From the IMG/VR virus record IMGVR_UViG_2695420745_000009: a stretch of DNA of 8,236 nt. The stretch is one strand, 5' to 3'. Shown here piece by piece: positions 872-8,236 of the stretch. Numbering within the stretch: the first letter of the stretch is position 1; every line of letters begins with the position of its first letter. Under the pieces are notes generated by a model, which was not told where the DNA came from, made no database searches, and worked only from the letters and a program-made list of their open reading frames with translations. Made by a program: the position numbers and the translations under genes. This stretch comes from a virus (Duplodnaviria > Heunggongvirae > Uroviricota > Caudoviricetes).

Positions 872-936
872 CAGCCCCTCCGGAGAGGGGCTGGAGAGTG
901 GCGCTATGTGCCATTGCATGGTGCCGGGTGCCTCCC
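872..936. repeat. Copy 1 of a ~64-bp direct repeat carrying a 9-bp GC-rich hairpin (cagcccctc-cgga-gaggggctg); runs into an N-run
   Basis: 873-936 is near-identical to 1153-1215 (one 1-nt indel, one substitution). Hairpin at 872-893. On the minus strand the hairpin is followed by TTTATATTGATTTTG, so it looks like a minus-oriented intrinsic terminator. Confidence 0.75.
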
Positions 937-1152
937 NNNNNNNNNNNNNNNNNNNNNNNNNNNNNNNNNNNNNNNNNNNNNNNNNNNNNNNNNNNNNNNN
1001 NNNNNNNNNNNNNNNNNNNNNNNNNNNNNNNNNNNNNNNNNNNCGATACGCCCTGCCTGCTGACAGGCTTTCATCACATCTGAAAATATAGCACCCTGAC
1101 TGATACTGTAGTACCTAAGGTTCCAGAAACTGTGATGTATCCGGCACAGAAA

Positions 1153-1215
1153 AGCCCCTCCGGAGAGGGCTGGAGAGTGGCGCTATGTGCCATTGCATGA
1201 TGCCGGGTGCCTCCC
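1153..1215. repeat. Copy 2 of the ~64-bp hairpin-bearing direct repeat
   Basis: Same sequence as 873-936 with a shortened stem (gcccctc-cgga-gagggc); on the minus strand it is followed by TTTTCTGTG. Confidence 0.75.
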
Positions 1216-1563
1216 GGTGAATTCAGTACCAGCACCTGAATCCGCGATTATCCCATATACCTACTCGCTGATTGCCCCTCCGCACAGGGGGATTCACCAT
1301 GCCAGTTTCTTTTAACAAACTCCCCGCAAACCAGACAACAGTCAACCGCCTGAATTGTGAAGTATTTAAAAATTTCTCCCGCTAACTGATACCCGGCTAA
1401 CAGTCTGGCGTTTTCTTTTTCAGCAACGGGAAAGCAACAACCACCACACCCGCCACCAGCACACCGTCAGCCAGCACTGACATTATCCGGCTGCTGCAAT
1501 GCCATTCACAAAAACAGTAAGCAATCACTTTTTACCGTAACAGGTGATAATCCAGATATGTAT

Positions 1564-1890: not shown

Positions 1891-2037
1891 TAGACCGTAT
1901 AACAAACACTCAATCAATACTTAACAGAACTTTTATTTTTGACAAACATAAAATATTTTCAACAATATCCTGAGCCAGGTATATTTCAGTATAAGGCTCT
2001 GCCGGAAGGAATCTGGAAGAATGAATATGGCGCGCTG

Positions 2038-2114
2038 TACTGGATTCGAACCAGTGACCGATTGCTTAGAAGGCAATTGCTCTGTCCGGCTGAGCTAACA
2101 ACGCATGATGCAGA
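2038..2114 (-). tRNA. argO: tRNA-Arg (anticodon UCU), positional equivalent of argO in Stx phages
   Basis: Minus-strand sequence GCGTTGT-TA-GCTC-AGCCGGACA-GAGC-A-ATTGC-CTTCTAA-GCAAT-CGGTC-ACTGG-TTCGAAT-CCAGT-ACAGCGC-G-CCA folds as a cloverleaf: 7-bp acceptor stem (one G-U pair), TTCGAAT T-loop, anticodon loop CU-UCU-AA, encoded CCA. Confidence 0.9.
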
Positions 2115-2185
2115 TAATGGACCGCCATCGGGGACTTGAACNNNNNNNNNNNNNNNNNNNNNACCGTCTGAATTGTGAGACATTT

Positions 2186-2211
2186 AAAAAAAAGGCCCGC
2201 AAAAGCGAGCC
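2186..2211 (-). terminator. Intrinsic-terminator-like hairpin between the two Arg tRNA genes
   Basis: Minus strand reads GGCTCGC-TTTT-GCGGGCC (7-bp stem with one G-U) followed by TTTTTTTTAAATG. It lies 15 nt downstream of the 3' end of the 2226-2302 tRNA. Confidence 0.5.
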
Positions 2212-2225
2212 AGGGAAAATAAGTG

Positions 2226-2302
2226 TGGCGCGTTGTACTGGATTCGAACCAGTGACCGATTGCTTAGAAGGCAATTGCTCTGTCCGGCTGAGCTAACAAC
2301 GC
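2226..2302 (-). tRNA. argN: tRNA-Arg (anticodon UCU), positional equivalent of argN
   Basis: Near-identical to the 2038-2114 tRNA (one acceptor-stem difference giving a fully Watson-Crick 7-bp stem GCGTTGT/ACAACGC), discriminator G, encoded CCA, anticodon loop CTTCTAA. Confidence 0.9.
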
Positions 2303-2402
2303 TGAATACCGATAATGGACCGCCATCGGGGACCCGCCCCCGCACCAACAACCCTGTTATCGTGTCGTCTGCTCTTCCTGATAAGCTAATGGCGGTTTGT
2401 GA

Positions 2403-2478
2403 TGGTGGCCCTTGCTGGATTTGAACCAGCGACCTGGCGATTATGAGTCGCTCGCTCTCACCACTGAGCTAAAGGGCC
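2403..2478 (-). tRNA. ileZ: tRNA with CAU anticodon, ileX-like (tRNA-Ile2 read as LAU after lysidinylation), positional equivalent of ileZ
   Basis: Minus strand GGCCCTTTAGCTCAGTGGTGAGAGCGAGCGACTCATAATCGCCAGGTCGCTGGTTCAAATCCAGCAAGGGCCACCA: 7-bp acceptor stem GGCCCTT/AAGGGCC, anticodon loop CTCATAA, encoded CCA. It closely resembles E. coli ileX as remembered. Anticodon alone cannot separate Ile2 from Met. Confidence 0.85.
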
Positions 2479-2518: not shown

Positions 2519-3577
2519 TCATCCGTTCTGGCTGACTAAATCCTGTACTTCCCGAACCGTCTGCTCAAAACGTTCAGTCTCCAGCTCAACGCCAATTGCA
2601 CGACGCCCGAGCGCCAGTGCCGCTTTCACTGTCGAACCCAACCCCATGAAAAAATCTGCAATCAGGTCACCCGGACGACTGCTAGCGCTGATTATCTGCT
2701 GCAGCATTTCTGCCGGTTTTTCGCACGGATGTTTCCCGGGATAGAACTGCACCGGTTTATGCGTCCACACATCGGTATACGGCACCTGCACCGTCACGCC
2801 AAAATACCGCCGCAGATGTTTATATTCACTCAGCAGCTCCGCATACTGCCGGTTCAGTGAGGTATACGTATCCACCAGCTGGTGGTGGAGCTTTTCCAGT
2901 TCACCACGCCGATGCTTCTCTTCTGCCACCCGGGCAAACAGCGCCTGTAATTTCAGATAATCGCTTTCATTCGGCAACTGCCACTGACCGGCACTGAACC
3001 AGTGCGACACCATGTTTTTCTTTCCTGTGGCATCTGCAATCTGTTTTGCCGTTATCCCCAGGGCAGCTCGCGCATCACGAAAGTAAGAAATCAGCGGGGC
3101 CATCACATGCTGTTTCAGTGCACTGCCCTTCGCCGCATACCCGGCATCTTTCGGACGATACGGCCCCTGATAATGTTCCGCGAACAGAATGCGCTCTGTG
3201 GCGGGGAAATACGCCCGCAGGCTTTCCTTGTTGCATCCGTTCCAGCGTCCGGACGGCTTCGCCCAGATAATATGGTTCAGCACACTGAAGCGTTCACGCA
3301 TCATGATTTCGATATCAGATGCCAGGCGATGACCACAGAACAGGTAAAGACTTCCGGCAGGTTTCAGCACCCGCCAGAACTGCGCCAGACACTGGTCCAG
3401 CCACTTCAGGTAATCATCGTCGCCCTTCCACTGGTTATCCCAGCCCTCAGGCTTCACTTTAAAGTACGGCGGGTCCGTGACTATCAGGTCAACAGAATTT
3501 TCGGGTAACGACCGGATAAATTCCAGGCAGTCGGCGTTGATTAACTCACAACTGGATATTTTTACAGTATTAAGCAT
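2519..3577 (-). CDS. DNA methyltransferase, beta-class (N6-adenine or N4-cytosine), 352 aa, no adjacent restriction endonuclease
   Basis: Motif IV DPPY near the N-terminus (VTDPPYF) and motif I FxGxG near the C-terminus (DFFMGLGST). That order defines the beta permutation of amino-MTases. Position between the Q-like gene and the tRNAs matches phage-borne methylases of Stx-type prophages. Confidence 0.85.
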   Translation of the reverse strand: MLNTVKISSCELINADCLEFIRSLPENSVDLIVTDPPYFKVKPEGWDNQWKGDDDYLKWLDQCLAQFWRVLKPAGSLYLFCGHRLASDIEIMMRERFSVLNHIIWAKPSGRWNGCNKESLRAYFPATERILFAEHYQGPYRPKDAGYAAKGSALKQHVMAPLISYFRDARAALGITAKQIADATGKKNMVSHWFSAGQWQLPNESDYLKLQALFARVAEEKHRRGELEKLHHQLVDTYTSLNRQYAELLSEYKHLRRYFGVTVQVPYTDVWTHKPVQFYPGKHPCEKPAEMLQQIISASSRPGDLIADFFMGLGSTVKAALALGRRAIGVELETERFEQTVREVQDLVSQNG

Positions 3578-3669
3578 GGATCATTAAGCCTGTCTCTGAT
3601 AGGCTCATTCTGCTTTTGCGCAAAGCAGTGGGCCTGAGGTTTGCTTGTGAACCCAACGCATGAGCAGAT

Positions 3670-3700
3670 GGCTGGTGGGTGTTAGGGGCACCCACCAGCC
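3670..3700. promoter_or_regulatory. Perfect 12-bp inverted repeat with 7-nt spacer (ggctggtgggtg-ttagggg-cacccaccagcc), about 95 nt upstream of the methyltransferase start
   Basis: Arms 3670-3681 and 3689-3700 are exact reverse complements. No U-tract follows on either strand, so it is not a canonical terminator. Candidate operator, RNA processing site or structural element. Confidence 0.45.
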
Positions 3701-3713
3701 GCCCATTTACCAC

Positions 3714-3741
3714 AAATAAAAAAGCCTTCACTGCGGAAGGC
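3714..3741 (-). terminator. Rho-independent terminator (candidate tR'-like) between the Q-like gene and the methyltransferase
   Basis: Minus strand reads GCCTTC-CGCAGT-GAAGGC followed by TTTTTTATTTGTG. It lies roughly 200 nt downstream of the N-masked stretch where a Q-dependent late promoter would be expected. Confidence 0.6.
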
Positions 3742-4099
3742 GTCTGTAANNNNNNNNNNNNNNNNNNNNNNNNNNNNNNNNNNNNNNNNNNNNNNNNNCC
3801 CCCCCCCGCCATAACCAGCTGGGTCAGTATTAACTGGCAGCGTTCGCGTGAAAGGTAAGTATTCTGCGCTATCTCCCCGACTGTCGCCGGTTCGGTAACG
3901 CTTNNNNNNNNNNNNNNNNNNNNNNNNNNNNNNNNNNNNNNNNNNNNNNNNNNNNNNNNNNNNNNNNNNNNNNNNNNNNNNNNNNNNNNNNNNNNNNNNN
4001 NNNNNNNGACACACCAATAACTCTTGTCGAAAAAGCCAGCAAGCTGAAAGACAGGTATTCACCGCCACCAGCGCGTTTACTGTACTGACGCGATTTCAG

Positions 4100-5026
4100 T
4101 CATAAAAAACCCGCTCGGCGGCGGGTTGTAGAAACTCTTCTAACGTCAGGCATAAAACGCCCATNNNNNNNNNNNNNNNNNNNNNNNNNNNNNNNNNNNN
4201 NNNNNNACCTAGTTACCTTTTTTAACTGCCGCTCAGCCCATGCTTCTTCAATATCAAACCGAGTCACCAGCGCATCATAGAATTTCTTAACTGTTTTTTC
4301 CCATGACGCGCGTGTTATCTGGTTTGTCACCTCGCATATAGCATTAAATGCCTCCGTTGATGGTAGTCTTTCATAGCCACGACCACCACAACGCTGGCAG
4401 TCTCTGATAACAGGCATACCACGTTTTACCGACTCTTCACGATGAATGGCGACACCACGCCCACGGCAATCCTTACAGGCGGTGGAAACCTCACCCTTTC
4501 CGCCACACTCCGGACAGGCAACTTTTACCACCTCCCTGACTTTTTTCCATTCTTCCCAGTAAGACGGATACACACCTTTCGTACACTTTGCCCATACCGG
4601 CGGCTTACCATCCGGATACTGGATCTTGTTTGTAAAAACCTCGCTTTCAATAAATTTTTTTCCGTGACAGCAGGGGCACTGTTTTTTGCTCGCCGCGCTA
4701 CGGGCATAATCTTCAAACGCATACGAAGCCATAATACGCATCACTGCCGGTTTTATTTCTGCCGGGAGTTTTCTTAACGCCGCCACGCGATCACACCGAC
4801 TGAGTGCATATTCTGTCAGCAATTCTGTTGCCCGCTCTCTGTCATTCATACTAATGCCCATTTTCCCAAGGAACGCAGAAACCCCCATCTCAGCCCGATT
4901 CTGTGTCATGCCCTGCGCGGCCATCACATCAGTGATACTCAGCGCATCTTTCGACGTTGAGGCCGATGCATCAGTCAGGCCGGGGGATTTTGGGGAGTAG
5001 TATTTCGGTAAATCTTCCAGTTTCAT
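4100..5026 (-). CDS. Putative late-gene antiterminator (Q-like, QuuQ-type) with four CxxCxGxG DnaJ-type zinc-finger repeats; C-terminus uncertain
   Basis: Sits where Q sits: directly after rusA, before the terminator, methylase and tRNAs. Contains CPCCHGKK, CPECGGKG, CKDCRGRG and CQRCGGRG. Its ATG overlaps the rusA stop (ATGA). The 3' part reads through 42 masked nt, so length and stop are not verified. Confidence 0.55.
   Translation of the reverse strand: MKLEDLPKYYSPKSPGLTDASASTSKDALSITDVMAAQGMTQNRAEMGVSAFLGKMGISMNDRERATELLTEYALSRCDRVAALRKLPAEIKPAVMRIMASYAFEDYARSAASKKQCPCCHGKKFIESEVFTNKIQYPDGKPPVWAKCTKGVYPSYWEEWKKVREVVKVACPECGGKGEVSTACKDCRGRGVAIHREESVKRGMPVIRDCQRCGGRGYERLPSTEAFNAICEVTNQITRASWEKTVKKFYDALVTRFDIEEAWAERQLKKVTRXXXXXXXXXXXXXXXGRFMPDVRRVSTTRRRAGFL
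4103..4125 (-). terminator. Terminator-like hairpin plus T-tract at the 3' end of the Q-like ORF
   Basis: Minus strand reads CCCGC-CGCCGA-GCGGG followed by TTTTTTATGA; the TGA inside the T-tract is the stop of the ORF as drawn. The true stop of the gene is uncertain because of the N-run at 4165-4206. Confidence 0.45.
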
Positions 5027-5403
5027 TTTTTGACCTGCCCTTCAAGCATTATGGGATAAATCTTCACCCCCAGACGTCCACCAGATACTGGCTGACCACG
5101 AACGATATTGATTTCATCAAACTGCTCATCGTCCATTAGCAACCCCGCATGCGTCAGCGCATCCAGCGGCGCTTTCAGAATATTGTCCAGGTCACGGCGG
5201 CGCTTATCCGGTGGTTCTGCAATAATTTTTATTGCCAACCTTCCGGACAGGCTTAATTTCAGCCGCTGCTGGCGAACAATAAGCGCCACTGCCCGGCGAT
5301 AACGCTCCCCGGCTTTTGATACAAAATATGTGCTGCCACGACGACGCCAGTAAGTGTTCACCGTCGGCGGGTAAGGTAAAACAAATTCTATGCGCTCGGT
5401 CAT
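5023..5403 (-). CDS. rusA: RusA-family Holliday junction resolvase, 126 aa
   Basis: Recalled similarity to E. coli RusA including the acidic catalytic region (PPDKRRRDLDNILKAPLDALTHAGLLMDDEQ versus RusA [31 protein letters not shown]); lambdoid nin-region context; start overlaps the stop of the upstream DUF968 gene (TAATG). Confidence 0.85.
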   Translation of the reverse strand: MTERIEFVLPYPPTVNTYWRRRGSTYFVSKAGERYRRAVALIVRQQRLKLSLSGRLAIKIIAEPPDKRRRDLDNILKAPLDALTHAGLLMDDEQFDEINIVRGQPVSGGRLGVKIYPIMLEGQVKK

Positions 5404-6462
5404 TTATGCTTTCCACTTCAGAACACCCGAATTTCTCGCGTGCATTAAAAAACGAATCAGCAACAACAGCTGACTGCCGTGTTTCTCTTCAAAATCTTTT
5501 ACTCCGGCATGTAGTTCGTTACGGCATTTACGGCATAACGGAATAACAAACAAATCATCAGCCTTTGTTCCCATCCCTCCCAGTCCATGACCAATGATGT
5601 GATGCGGATCATCTGCCTGATTGCCACACGTCATGCATTTCTGCGTTTTTACCCAGCGCGTGTATACAGGCATCTCTTCCCGTTGTGATTTCTGGCGCTG
5701 GAGATACTGAGCCGGTGACTCCGGATCAACGGCAATGCTGACCACCGTCTTTTCCTGTGGTGGGTTCTGTTGCTGGTGGACGTGAGGCAGTAACGCAATA
5801 TTTTTTGTGCGCTGCTTCAGTATGCTGGTGGCTGTCTGCTCTCCCGGTATGATGTCGCTTTCACTGTACACAGAGCGAATTTTTTCCGCACGCAACCCCA
5901 GCGAACGACGTAATACCGCTTCCGGTAGCGCGTCCGCCACCTGATTGCGGACCGCCCACCAGGATAATTCAGCCAGAGATAATTCACGCTCCTGCGTACC
6001 GCTTATTGCGTGACCGATGACGTCAATCATCCATGCTGACAGGTTTTGATGAGCAAGTTGCTCGAGTGATTCGGATGTCTGGTCACGCAGCTGGTTGTCG
6101 CAGTGCCAGCACAACACCATTGCGCCGGTACCATAACGGTGAATGACGGTTTCGCTGTGATGATAATCGCCGTGTGGCCACTGGCAGGATTTAATATGGC
6201 GCACCAGCCAGTCAGACAATGCACCAGCACCACCAGCAGCACGAATCACCCGTGCGTTACTGAAAAACGGCAGCAATGTTTTGTCTTCCACCAGCGGCTG
6301 GCGAGCGGCAGGAACGACCCCGGACGGCAGATTACGCATGCTTTTTGGTTCCGGCTCCACCAGTATTCTGCCGTTATGGAATGCTGACATTGATTCACGG
6401 CCTGGCTTAACGATAACCAGACCGAGTTCCGGTACCAGAACAGGTCGAAGTAATACCCGCAC
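5404..6462 (-). CDS. DUF968 / YdfU-like prophage protein with C-terminal HNH-like zinc-finger motif, 352 aa, GTG start
   Basis: C-terminal CMTCGNQADDPHHIIGHGLGG...CRKCRNELH (CxxC...HH...CxxC...H). GTG start at 6462 is preceded by GGAGGT 5 nt upstream. Same position as ydfU in the K-12 Qin prophage (quuQ-ydfU-rem-hokD). Family assignment is from memory and synteny. Confidence 0.7.
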   Translation of the reverse strand: MRVLLRPVLVPELGLVIVKPGRESMSAFHNGRILVEPEPKSMRNLPSGVVPAARQPLVEDKTLLPFFSNARVIRAAGGAGALSDWLVRHIKSCQWPHGDYHHSETVIHRYGTGAMVLCWHCDNQLRDQTSESLEQLAHQNLSAWMIDVIGHAISGTQERELSLAELSWWAVRNQVADALPEAVLRRSLGLRAEKIRSVYSESDIIPGEQTATSILKQRTKNIALLPHVHQQQNPPQEKTVVSIAVDPESPAQYLQRQKSQREEMPVYTRWVKTQKCMTCGNQADDPHHIIGHGLGGMGTKADDLFVIPLCRKCRNELHAGVKDFEEKHGSQLLLLIRFLMHARNSGVLKWKA

Positions 6463-6537
6463 ATTACCTCCAGATCCGTTGCTGGAATGTGCGGGACGGA
6501 CGCGTTGGCCGTTCGGAGTAAGGGAGCCTGACGGAGA

Positions 6538-6819
6538 TTATCCAGTGACGGTAGTCGAGGCTAAGGGCTTTTTTAACCTCGCATCCGCGCCTGCGGTAAC
6601 ACTGAATGAGCCATTCGGCCTGTTCTTCAGTGCATGGGGGATGCTGGTACCAATCAGATTTAAATGCGTGAGAGCGCCGCCCGTGCCTGCTGGCAAAGAC
6701 GGCTGAATTATCAGAATTGTGTAGTCTGGAAGGCAGTGGCTGACAATAGCGCCATTCTCAACGCGCACAGTATAGAGGCCATCTTCACTAAAAATTTCAC
6801 GTAATTCTTCGATTTTCAT
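6538..6819 (-). CDS. Hypothetical small protein, 93 aa from ATG at 6819, positional equivalent of rem in Qin prophage
   Basis: ATG at 6819 preceded by AAGGA about 8 nt upstream; lies between the hok terminator and the DUF968 gene. Identity with Rem is not verified by sequence. Confidence 0.5.
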   Translation of the reverse strand: MKIEELREIFSEDGLYTVRVENGAIVSHCLPDYTILIIQPSLPAGTGGALTHLNLIGTSIPHALKNRPNGSFSVTAGADARLKKPLASTTVTG

Positions 6820-6940
6820 CAACAGAATCCTTCCAGATAAATAGCACTCCCCTGTTCGGGGTCCATCCCTCTTCTCCCTGCGCGCTACTTAAGTATTTTT
6901 GATTCTATTCCGGCACCATCTAAAACTTCAAACGCGTTGA

Positions 6941-6970
6941 AAATAAAAACAAAAACCCGCCGAAGCGGGT
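6941..6970 (-). terminator. Strong rho-independent terminator downstream of the hok toxin gene
   Basis: Minus strand reads ACCCGC-TTCG-GCGGGT (6-bp GC-rich stem with a UUCG tetraloop) followed by TTTTGTTTTTATTT. Confidence 0.75.
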
Positions 6971-7039
6971 TAAGTGTGGGTGCATTGAGGATGCCTGACC
7001 CATCAGAGGTGGCGAGGGATTTCTCCCCCGCCTGGTCTC

Positions 7040-7195
7040 TTACTCCTCAGGTTCGTAAGCTGTGAAGACAGCGACCTCCGTCTGGCCGGTTCGAATTCGT
7101 ACCTCGCAGAGGTCTTTCCTCGTTACCAGTGCCGTCACTATGACGGTTAAACAGATGACGATCAGGGCGATTAACATCGCCTTTTGCTGCTTCAT
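7040..7195 (-). CDS. hokD: Hok/Gef-family type I membrane toxin, 51 aa, matching HokD (RelF) as remembered
   Basis: Translation MKQQKAMLIALIVICLTVIVTALVTRKDLCEVRIRTGQTEVAVFTAYEPEE has the Hok-family transmembrane helix and C-terminal motif. AAGGAG Shine-Dalgarno 8-13 nt before the ATG at 7195. An in-frame upstream ATG at 7252 is probably not the real start. Confidence 0.9.
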   Translation of the reverse strand: MKQQKAMLIALIVICLTVIVTALVTRKDLCEVRIRTGQTEVAVFTAYEPEE

Positions 7196-7406
7196 AGCCT
7201 GCTTCTCCTTGCCTTTCGGCACGTAAGAGGCTAACCTAGATTTGCCGTTCATAGATTGAGCCTCAGATTAATGTTAAGCGTCTTGCCGGACGCGTAATGT
7301 TAACTGGGGCTTTTCTCTATCTGCCTTTTGGTGTTCATGCCTGAGACAGATAGCCTCAAGCACCCGCTGCAATTCTACTTAACTCTCCTTTTCCCGCAAA
7401 CCGTTT

Positions 7407-7490
7407 TTATCCCCAGCGGCAAATCGAATACACCACCAGCGCCACCGCCATCGCAATTCCTACCGTTGTTAATGCTTCAGGCCAGGTCAT
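7407..7490 (-). CDS. Candidate small hydrophobic peptide, 27 aa ([27 protein letters not shown]), translationally coupled to the upstream gene
   Basis: ATG overlaps the TGA of ORF-C (ATGA at 7487-7490); GGAGG lies 9 nt upstream. About 17 consecutive hydrophobic residues, then RWG. Absent from the ORF track because it is under the length cutoff. Coding status unproven. Confidence 0.35.
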
Positions 7491-7831
7491 CGTAAAATAT
7501 CCTCCACGCTTATCAGTCCGTTCCGCTCCAGATAACTCATCGCCTTATCCGGTAATTTGCAGTCTGGCTTCGCTTTCCTCAGTTGCCAGGTTAACTGCTT
7601 TACCAGCATGGTTAACTCATCGACCAGACGCTGATATCCCACTGGTTTGTATTCATGCAATTTACCGGCTGGCTCTGCTGCCAGCGATACCAGTGCGATT
7701 TCCAGAACAGCAATATCCATCTTATATGTGCGGATGATGTCATGGTCGATTGTGCCCGGTATGCACAGTCTCTGTGCTTCAATAGTCTCCTCTGCGTGAG
7801 CTATTAACTGCTCTCTGGTAAAAGTCGTCAT
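7487..7831 (-). CDS. Hypothetical protein ORF-C, 114 aa, paralogous at its N-terminus to ORF-B
   Basis: ATG at 7831 preceded by AAGGGG; ATG overlaps the stop of ORF-B (ATGA). Shares MTTxTxEx at the start and [10 protein letters not shown] (versus [10 protein letters not shown]) with ORF-B. Confidence 0.6.
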
Positions 7832-7995
7832 GCCGTAGCCCCTTCTTGATATTTTTCAAACCAGAACACAACCGGCTCTGCTTCCAGCGATGCCAGCGCA
7901 ATCCGTGCCAGTTCCATTTGTTCACCACGGGTAAGCCCGTTTTCAAGCGGGTTTTTAATGAACAATTCAATACGTTCTTTGGTAATAGTGGTCAT
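7828..7995 (-). CDS. Hypothetical protein ORF-B, 55 aa ([55 protein letters not shown]), short paralog of ORF-C
   Basis: Hand-translated from the minus strand; absent from the ORF track (below cutoff). Consensus AAGGAG 6 nt before the ATG at 7995; its stop overlaps the ORF-C start. Confidence 0.55.
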
Positions 7996-8005
7996 GTGTT
8001 ACTCC

Positions 8006-8236
8006 TTAACCCGCAGTGCTTTCAACTGATGAGGGGAACAAAATCTTTTCATCAAACCCTGCATTCATATCATGAACAGCAACACACCAATCCATCGACG
8101 AACGATTATCAAGAGCCTCCATGATTTCATCCATGCGGCGTAGGTCATACAGGTAAATGCTTTTATCGCCAATGGTGTAAAAGCCAATTTTTTTCGGTGA
8201 TGGATGAGGTGTACTGGCAATAGCGGACACTACCAT
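8006..8236 (-). CDS. Hypothetical protein ORF-A, 76 aa, start codon at the window edge; its first 31 nt form the right terminal inverted repeat
   Basis: ORF beginning MVVSAIASTPHPSPKK; its TAA stop (8006-8008) overlaps the Shine-Dalgarno of ORF-B. No upstream sequence is visible, so the start cannot be confirmed. Confidence 0.5.
   Translation of the reverse strand: MVVSAIASTPHPSPKKIGFYTIGDKSIYLYDLRRMDEIMEALDNRSSMDWCVAVHDMNAGFDEKILFPSSVESTAG

Follow-up and report, generated by a model that had tools for sequence, protein, structure and literature searches.

A probable recombination remnant beside the two-module accessory gene ORF-C in an Escherichia coli lambdoid prophage

In this work, we analyzed a viral DNA stretch of 8236 nt (IMG/VR record IMGVR_UViG_2695420745_000009, referred to below as the window), in which two small, overlapping genes, ORF-B and ORF-C, encode proteins with similar N-termini. 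Our overall reading, to which we assign a probability of about 80%, is that ORF-B is a recombination remnant located beside a real two-module accessory gene, ORF-C, and that their arrangement reflects ordinary lambdoid mosaicism. The evidence comprises the composite structure of ORF-B, the mosaic joints around it, the exchange of N-terminal modules on an otherwise constant ORF-C, and a natural deletion hybrid of the two genes.

Locus and Gene Content

The window is a piece of an E. coli lambdoid (Rac/Qin-like) prophage, and the region of ORF-B and ORF-C belongs to its early accessory ('nin') gene string. All protein-coding genes assigned within positions 2519–8236 are located on the minus strand (Table 1). 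The gene order in this prophage is DUF4014 – 87-aa gene – ORF-B – ORF-C, and a Rac-type exonuclease region is also present. The start codon of ORF-B is preceded by a strong ribosome-binding site (RBS), AAGGAG at 8003–8008, placed 6 nt before it (7 nt to the A of ATG), and the stop codon of ORF-B overlaps the start codon of ORF-C by 4 nt (ATGA, 7828–7831). Neither ORF-B nor ORF-C gave any match in Pfam (at an e-value of 1 or below) or NCBIfam, and a PADLOC search of both proteins and of the upstream 87-aa gene product returned no family at an e-value of 0.1 or below.

Table 1. Genes and sequence features of the analyzed region (window coordinates).
Feature	Coordinates	Strand	Remarks
DNA methyltransferase	2519–3577	-	
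Antiterminator Q	4100–5026	-	
RusA	5023–5403	-	
DUF968/HNH protein	5404–6462	-	
hok with sok	7040–7252 and 7190–7365		
Unannotated 27-codon ORF	7407–7490	-	ATGA-coupled to the ORF-C stop
ORF-C, 114 aa	7487–7831	-	RefSeq WP_000206826.1, annotated 'hypothetical protein'
ORF-C C-module, residues 64–114	7490–7642	-	predicted coiled-coil-like helix and two short helices
ORF-C linker, residues 55–63	7643–7669	-	predicted disordered; low pLDDT over residues 56–66
ORF-C N-module, residues 1–54	7670–7831	-	predicted antiparallel helical hairpin; conserved block at 7670–7699
ORF-B, 55 aa	7828–7995	-	RefSeq WP_000207997.1, annotated 'hypothetical protein'
HNH-derived tail of ORF-B, 14 codons and stop	7828–7872	-	contains Shine-Dalgarno-like GAAGGGG; ATGA-coupled to ORF-C
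Recombination joint inside ORF-B	7869–7878	-	EaA-type identity from 7995 down to ~7869; identity with the HNH gene 3' end from 7406 up to 7872–7878
Conserved 3' block of the ORF-B N-module	7873–7914	-	DNA-identical in three stub alleles and the EaA-type parents
Conserved 5' block of the ORF-B N-module, codons 1–8	7972–7995	-	left flank of the variable core, together with the RBS
87-aa gene, 3' part, upstream of ORF-B	8006–8204	-	WP_000224233.1, phrog_1714

Similarity of ORF-B and ORF-C

ORF-B begins with MTTITKER and ORF-C with MTTFTREQ, and the block IAL(A/V)SL(E/A)AEP occupies residues 32–41 of the former and 45–54 of the latter. Their alignment contains 13 gap positions, and the block is followed by 60 residues in ORF-C versus 14 in ORF-B. 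Inspection of the coordinates and translations showed that the N-termini, the block, the 13-residue difference in length, and the C-terminal extension are all as described in an earlier note on this DNA, which had been made from the letters and their translations. The pairwise alignment proposed there as a check gave a significant result: BLASTP found 18 identities in 54 positions (33%) with an e-value of 1e-5 in this single comparison, and the Smith-Waterman score was 56, compared with 23 ± 4 after shuffling; in each of the three shuffle schemes applied, none of the 5000 shuffles attained it. Moreover, the first 50–58 residues of both proteins match the same positions of the PHROG profiles 60, 660, 5117, and 3323, and MAFFT places the ORF-B homologs on the N-terminal segment of ORF-C. 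As BLASTP, the shuffle test, and the common PHROG positions agree, the likeness of the two ORFs is true homology, although it is confined to an N-terminal module (N-module) and does not extend over the whole proteins.

Composite Origin of ORF-B

ORF-B is a chimeric stub, in which an EaA-type N-module continues, without a change of frame, into the final 14 codons of a gene for an HNH endonuclease. Its residues 1–37 are identical (37/37) to the start of gp026 of Salmonella phage VSe13, a 228-aa protein composed of the N-module, a dATP/dGTP pyrophosphohydrolase domain (PF04447), and DUF551, and they share 35 of 37 residues with EaA of phage P22 (317 aa; tblastn, 86% over 44 aa), whose architecture is the same. 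The EaA N-terminal leader (~40 aa) is thus present in ORF-B, whereas ORF-C bears only a distant allele of it (33% identity). The downstream domains are a different matter: PF04447/DUF550, detected by Pfam in P22 EaA (e-value of 1e-49) and VSe13 gp026 (5e-42), is absent from ORF-B and ORF-C at an e-value of 1 or below, and so, in the Pfam search, is DUF551 (PF04448), which is present in EaA, VSe13 gp026, and one of the homologous proteins discussed below (P0186).

Residues 42–55 of ORF-B, i.e., its last 14, are found unchanged as the C-terminal tail of an HNH endonuclease of 121 aa, gp11 of phage ArgO145 (WP_001229296), the identity covering 45 nt at the DNA level, and both genes are ATGA-coupled to ORF-C. 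This tail is native to the HNH family, since the match of the 121-aa protein to phrog_2118 spans residues 1–120. ORF-B itself matches only positions 252–275 of the 301 positions of this profile (e-value of 0.002), while gp11 matches 161–275. The Pfam HNH domain (PF01844) covers residues 19–68 of gp11 and was not found by Pfam in ORF-B, which lacks the whole catalytic core.

The two parentages are also separated at the DNA level. Megablast against phages splits the region into window positions 7406–7872, which are 99.6% identical to Stx phage ArgO145, and 7882–8200, which are 95.6% identical to Salmonella phage VSe13. In a five-sequence DNA alignment, the parent switch in ORF-B falls between GAGCCGGTTG and TGTTC: ORF-B tracks the EaA-type parents up to GAAGCAGAGCCGGTTG and, from GTTGTGTTCTGG... 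to the ATGA, it tracks the 3' end of the HNH gene. The parents have only CC(G/A)GTTG in common at this joint, i.e., a microhomology of 7–10 nt. The B-type module differs from that of VSe13 by six synonymous and no nonsynonymous changes, and together with the 3' part of the 87-aa gene it moves as one mosaic unit. ArgO145 and E. coli W12-1 instead have the arrangement DUF4014 – HNH – ORF-C, with the HNH/ORF-C overlap being likewise ATGA.

It should be stressed that the C-terminal region of the HNH protein is itself weakly similar to the module end upstream of the joint (26 of 56 nt in an ungapped comparison; 57% identity over 35 aa in tblastn, the identical tail included). Therefore, the joint may be homeologous rather than purely microhomology-mediated, and the direction of the descent of the tail is less than certain.

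Family, Predicted Structure, and Selection of ORF-C

ORF-C is a member of PHROG 660 (e-value of 8e-43), which it matches in two stretches, with residues 66–114 of its C-module on profile positions 145–193; ORF-B covers only positions 3–60 of the same profile (e-value of 4e-10). With dN/dS values of 0.22 and 0.31 against two diverged orthologs, and of 0.16 in its C-terminal half, ORF-C is a real gene under purifying selection. The copies of ORF-B are more than 98.8% identical and thus give a constraint test on the stub no power, and the dN/dS between ORF-B and ORF-C is saturated.

The AlphaFold2 model of ORF-C, built with a 25-sequence alignment (mean pLDDT 66, pTM 0.44), comprises an N-terminal hairpin of helices 6–23 and 30–51 (pLDDT 76–88), ending at the ...SLAAEP block, and a C-terminal part with a long helix (residues 64–87) and two short ones (pLDDT ~60). 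As the predicted hairpin ends at the block and a low-confidence linker comes next, the model places the conserved block at the end of helix 2 together with its proline cap, i.e., at a predicted domain boundary. A Foldseek comparison of the model with BFVD and PDB gave no match below an e-value of 0.3, with only generic helical hairpins of 45–55 residues, and an HMM search of the PDB sequences returned only de novo designed antiparallel coiled coils. We read the latter matches as heptad composition and not homology, and they suggest a heptad-type oligomerizing helix in ORF-C. Our best guess, at somewhat less than even odds, is that the leader serves as an oligomerization or adaptor hairpin. ORF-C may be pictured as a small, all-helical accessory protein with an exchangeable N-terminal hairpin, a disordered linker, and a conserved coiled-coil-like C-module.

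The N-Module as a Shuffled Cassette

The homologue lists contain at least 10 leader alleles, all of which start with M-T-T-[IF]-T-[KR]-E and end with [IV]ALASLEAEP[VI] around an unalignable core of 20–35 residues. At least seven N-module alleles are found on an otherwise near-identical ORF-C core, which shows that alleles are swapped there, and the leader allele of ORF-C itself is also carried by DUF551 proteins (P0184 and P0186). When 1.84 billion representative proteins were scanned in full by HMMER with the ORF-C family profile (N-module and C-module), 715 clusters (50% identity clusters) were obtained at an e-value of 1e-3 or below. Typically, 0–250 variable residues separate the leader from the C-module in these proteins. 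The C-module was also found behind Ead/Ea22, PF04447, and HNH N-termini, and always at the extreme C terminus.

Among the stubs, two alleles (P0110 and P0120) have the same ~100-nt 3' block and the same HNH tail as ORF-B; P0110 precedes ORF-C, and P0120 precedes a DUF551 gene that itself starts with MTTFT (locus L010). The identity of these two alleles to the window is limited to 7914–7809 plus the RBS and the first eight codons, or starts at 7908, and the type-5 allele locus (L010) matches window positions 8009–7976 at 88%. As the identity is limited to these two patches, the variable core is flanked by two conserved ones. The resemblance of ORF-B and ORF-C would thus arise because the module has conserved ends (approximately the first 8 and the last 10–14 codons) around a variable core. 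Many further N-module stubs bear unrelated tails of 45–63 aa, and one locus (L013) contains three tandem leader genes of 149, 54, and 114 aa. The conserved block was also considered as a Chi-like signal, which was dropped: it contains GCTGG twice and no Chi octamer.

A Deletion Hybrid of ORF-B and ORF-C

A 101-aa protein encoded on 13 contigs (P0151) consists of residues 1–37 of ORF-B and residues 51–114 of ORF-C. Its gene has the same neighbors as the pair in the window, the 87-aa gene on one side and hok on the other, and the locus aligns to window positions 8204–7874 and 7699–7001 with ~98% identity. Since these two alignments share 29 nt at the common block, the hybrid is exactly what results when 203 nt are deleted between the block of ORF-B and that of ORF-C, the crossover lying in ATCGCTGG. 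In phages of this type, ORF-B is no longer a separate gene and the context is otherwise the same. Tandem co-resident leaders are always different alleles, because identical tandem alleles would delete the intervening DNA.

Two other candidates for genuine B–C fusions (P0121 and P0122) were rejected, since Logan assemblies are their only source and frameshift errors their likely cause. Likewise, a PGAP 'pseudogene' call in strain O121 (L005) was dropped as evidence of decay; a continuous 289-codon ORF is present there.

Occurrence in E. coli Genomes

In a survey of 5426 complete E. coli genomes (with a coverage of at least 80% for full-length counts), ORF-C was present in 563, full-length ORF-B in 318, and the two together in 324. 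Any match to the ORF-B query was found in 1338 genomes, which, apart from the 318 with the full-length gene, contain mainly the 5' 115–127 nt of the leader. In these more than 1000 further genomes, the leader lacks the rest of ORF-B and heads DUF550, DUF551, or other genes, or stubs. The ORF-B stub is practically always accompanied by ORF-C. The reverse does not hold, although the earlier note had asked whether the homologs always occur as pairs and had named homologs routinely found alone as evidence against its reading: only ~320 of the 563 genomes with ORF-C also carry ORF-B, and in the remaining ~240 ORF-C is preceded by the HNH gene, a DUF7167 gene, or another small gene.

Proposed Origin and Alternative Explanations

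We propose that the 5' 123–126 nt of an EaA-type gene entered together with the upstream 87-aa gene. At the microhomology of 7–10 nt, they would have been joined to the final 14 codons of the HNH gene, the usual neighbor of ORF-C on this side. Relative to the W12-1 arrangement, the 87-aa gene and the leader would have taken the place of the greater part of the HNH gene. As the reading frame continues across the join, both the ATGA coupling and the ribosome-binding site of ORF-C would have been kept. At the DNA level, the conserved module ends may offer phage recombinases of the Rad52 type short stretches of homology for the exchange of cassettes. It is experimentally established that such recombinases (Red-beta, RecT, Erf) act efficiently on short, diverged homologies shared by phages and defective prophages (PMC3945230; PMC2327257), and such relaxed exchanges include intragenic ones of ~100 bp and involve defective prophages such as Rac and Qin (PMC3945230). 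The homologies used in relaxed (homeologous) recombination, which gives rise to lambdoid mosaicism (Martinsohn 2008, PMC2327257; De Paepe 2014, PMC3945230), are likewise short and imperfect; other loci were measured in those studies, and for the present one we infer the pathway.

The earlier note regarded ORF-B and ORF-C as tandem paralogs. The homologous N-module and the truncated form of ORF-B stand, but a simple tandem duplication does not, with the modules being closer to genes elsewhere and the tail of ORF-B being HNH-derived. The two ORFs overlap as direct neighbors in one orientation and have significantly similar N-termini, as would be expected after a local duplication in place followed by truncation and divergence of ORF-B. 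However, the identity between the two modules is 33%, compared with 95–100% to modules of other genes, mosaic joints flank the parts of ORF-B, and ORF-C occurs in ~240 genomes and in other contexts without ORF-B, which, along with the foreign tail, makes this origin extremely improbable. We consider equally improbable that the common blocks owe their conservation chiefly to a role as nucleic acid, such as a regulatory site in RNA or DNA or a dedicated recombination signal, rather than to the protein. It is true that three otherwise unrelated alleles agree in the 3' block even at synonymous sites and that the RBS lies within the 5' block, but the ORF-B and ORF-C blocks differ at several synonymous positions with the peptide kept, and diverged family members retain the pattern A-L-A-[SA]-[LM]-[ED]-[AS]-E-P despite many nucleotide changes. 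Furthermore, the block is no Chi site, no Rfam family was found here at the gathering threshold, and recent recombination accounts for the DNA identity with no extra assumption.

More weight, although the idea is still unlikely, has to be given to ORF-B as a functional micro-protein, i.e., a putative decoy, a dominant-negative or regulatory hairpin partner, or a translation driver for the coupled ORF-C. As a counterpoint to the remnant reading, ORF-B is an uninterrupted, in-frame ORF behind a strong AAGGAG RBS, is ATGA-coupled to ORF-C, and is present in 318 genomes, and the same tail follows three N-module alleles, one of which precedes the DUF551 gene starting with MTTFT (L010). Therefore, selection for a small protein could explain its persistence. 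In addition, helical hairpins, the fold predicted for its module, often dimerize into four-helix bundles. On the other hand, the many N-module stubs with unrelated tails of 45–63 aa form a pattern expected of decay products, phage annotators label such genes 'Truncated P22 EaA protein', and phages carrying the deletion hybrid have lost the separate ORF-B in the same context. The AlphaFold2 model of the read-through ORF-B/ORF-C fusion P0121 (mean pLDDT 50, pTM 0.40), which served as a proxy for a complex of the two proteins, lends no support to packing; its ORF-B half has no alignment depth because MAFFT set the ORF-B homologs onto the ORF-C half. On balance, we favor ORF-B as a recombination remnant, probably devoid of a function of its own.

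A further idea, which we consider quite improbable, is that the EaA-type leader behaves as a cassette kept in two to three tandem copies per prophage, some of them truncated, and that the stubs donate hairpins or titrate module-bearing proteins. By analogy with the silent cassettes of antigenic variation, such a stub reservoir might supply alternative hairpins to expressed genes such as ORF-C. If reservoir or titration were true, the diversity of N-modules would be selected, either in an arms race against some target in the host or in phages or for the insulation of co-resident paralogs, and would not be a by-product of recombination.

Comparison with Known Systems and Significance

The nearest known relatives of the B-type leader are P22 EaA and the 'EaA/Eaa-like' proteins of P22-like and lambdoid phages (e.g., hkaE of HK620), with the first 37–44 residues of ORF-B corresponding to the EaA N-terminus, and both P22 EaA and ORF-B/ORF-C are among the non-essential early accessory genes. 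They differ in what follows: P22 EaA continues into PF04447 and DUF551, whereas ORF-B has neither and ends in the HNH tail, and ORF-C has a different module allele as well as a different C-terminal module. No paper treating DUF550 in combination with DUF551 turned up in a literature search, and eaA is not discussed in the genome papers of phages L and epsilon34.

The same design principle is seen in the Ea22 proteins of lambda and Stx phages, which share a common N-terminal oligomerizing part, a mobile linker, and interchangeable C-terminal domains, including DUF551, and are encoded in early accessory regions (PMC10834534). The ORF-C C-module itself occurs behind Ead_Ea22 N-termini (P0270). 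Unlike the Ea22 N-terminus with its coiled coil, the module of ORF-B and ORF-C is a short predicted hairpin, and neither protein matched the Ead_Ea22 signature (PF13935) in Pfam.

The locus exemplifies ordinary phage gene shuffling that is unusually well documented, with no new mechanism and no new regulatory pair. As both parents are available, along with a deletion product derived from it, it offers a clean natural example of short domain-boundary blocks that would drive shuffling in lambdoid accessory genes. The hairpin leader heads hundreds of protein clusters, those of dNTP pyrophosphohydrolases included, and its role is a modest question. There is also a gain for annotation: WP_000207997 would be best described as a truncated EaA-like/HNH-tail fusion remnant, and WP_000206826 as a PHROG-660 protein of two modules, whose gene is coupled to an unannotated putative membrane ORF of 27 codons.

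The latter ORF is the most interesting loose end, outside the main finding. It encodes one hydrophobic helix, ORF-C would be translationally coupled to it, and in five different contexts the mosaic block that contains ORF-C stops exactly at its stop codon.

Extent of the ORF-C Mosaic Unit

Downstream of ORF-C, and overlapping its stop codon, lies a short unannotated reading frame of 27 codons (see the table below), whose TAA stop was found to be the exact end of sequence identity in five different genomic contexts. This shared boundary indicates that ORF-C and the 27-codon ORF travel together as a single mosaic unit. In each context examined, a different toxin-antitoxin module adjoins the unit. 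The tblastn searches revealed the 27-codon ORF in 91 phage records, many of which are Stx phages, and among these matches it often directly follows genes of the EaA, Ea22, or DUF551 type. The only family matches were two weak ones, i.e., phrog_4612 (E 0.011) and the sub-threshold NCBIfam kdpF (E 0.12).

The window of 8.2 kb contains 11 Chi octamers (four on the plus strand and seven on the minus strand), which is a far higher density than the E. coli average.

Coordinates of features in the window and at related loci (L006 and L016 are loci of other genomes)
Feature	Location	Coordinates	Strand	Remarks
27-codon ORF, unannotated	window	7407-7490	minus	one hydrophobic helix; ATGA overlap with ORF-C stop
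Chi octamer GCTGGTGG	window	7433-7440	minus	within 27-codon ORF, just downstream of ORF-C
hok/sok	window	7040-7365		beside ORF-C
ParD/ParE	L006	2234-2796		beside ORF-C in W12-1 and ArgO145
Doc-family toxin	L016	186-869		beside ORF-C in SCPM-O-B-7615
ORF-C C-terminal module	phage N15	38756-38890		end of gp45/45.1; linear-plasmid prophage
ORF-C C-terminal module	ST64B	23881-24051		end of sb31/32
Two tRNA-Arg(TCT) genes, with tRNA-Met(CAT) gene nearby	window	2028-2478		tRNA-Arg genes inside 121-nt direct repeat
STnc100 sRNA match	window	1142-1331		122 bits
49-nt direct repeats	window	888-936 and 1167-1215

Leader Genes and the C-Terminal Module in Other Genomes

At the related locus L013 (2550-3506), three leader-bearing genes are arranged in tandem, encoding a 149-aa protein, a 54-aa stub ending in the same HNH tail as ORF-B, and the 114-aa ORF-C, and each of the three carries a different allele of the N-module. 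The C-terminal segment of the HNH endonuclease located upstream of the shared tail (GKGKALVRMGLVEMKSDP; L006 3342-3440, the C-terminus of ArgO145 gp11) faintly resembles the end of the leader (26/56 nt, ungapped), which suggests that the joint of ORF-B, where its EaA-type part meets the HNH tail, may sit within an old homeologous region. As the C-terminal module of ORF-C also ends genes of N15 and ST64B, its distribution extends beyond the classical lambdoid phages.

Window Ends and Masked Bases

The window is bounded by a perfect 31-nt terminal inverted repeat (1-31 and 8205-8235). Complete E. coli genomes match the window only from about position 29, and identity stops at 8204, therefore its ends are not contiguous prophage sequence, and the repeat probably represents either an artefact of assembly with k=31 or a repeat junction. 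It follows that the apparent ATG at 8234-8236 is not the true start of the gene upstream of ORF-B, the RefSeq length of which is 87 aa. Runs of masked bases (N) are present at about 130-290, 935-1040, 2120-2150, 3760-4010, and 4100-4150, the last of which breaks the Q antiterminator ORF at its C-terminal end; ORF predictions spanning these runs are unreliable.

tRNA Genes

The tRNA-Arg(TCT) pair and a nearby tRNA-Met(CAT) gene are localized in the interval bounded by the STnc100 sRNA and the DNA methyltransferase gene (2519-3577), which on the minus strand comes after both Q and the methylase in the direction of transcription.
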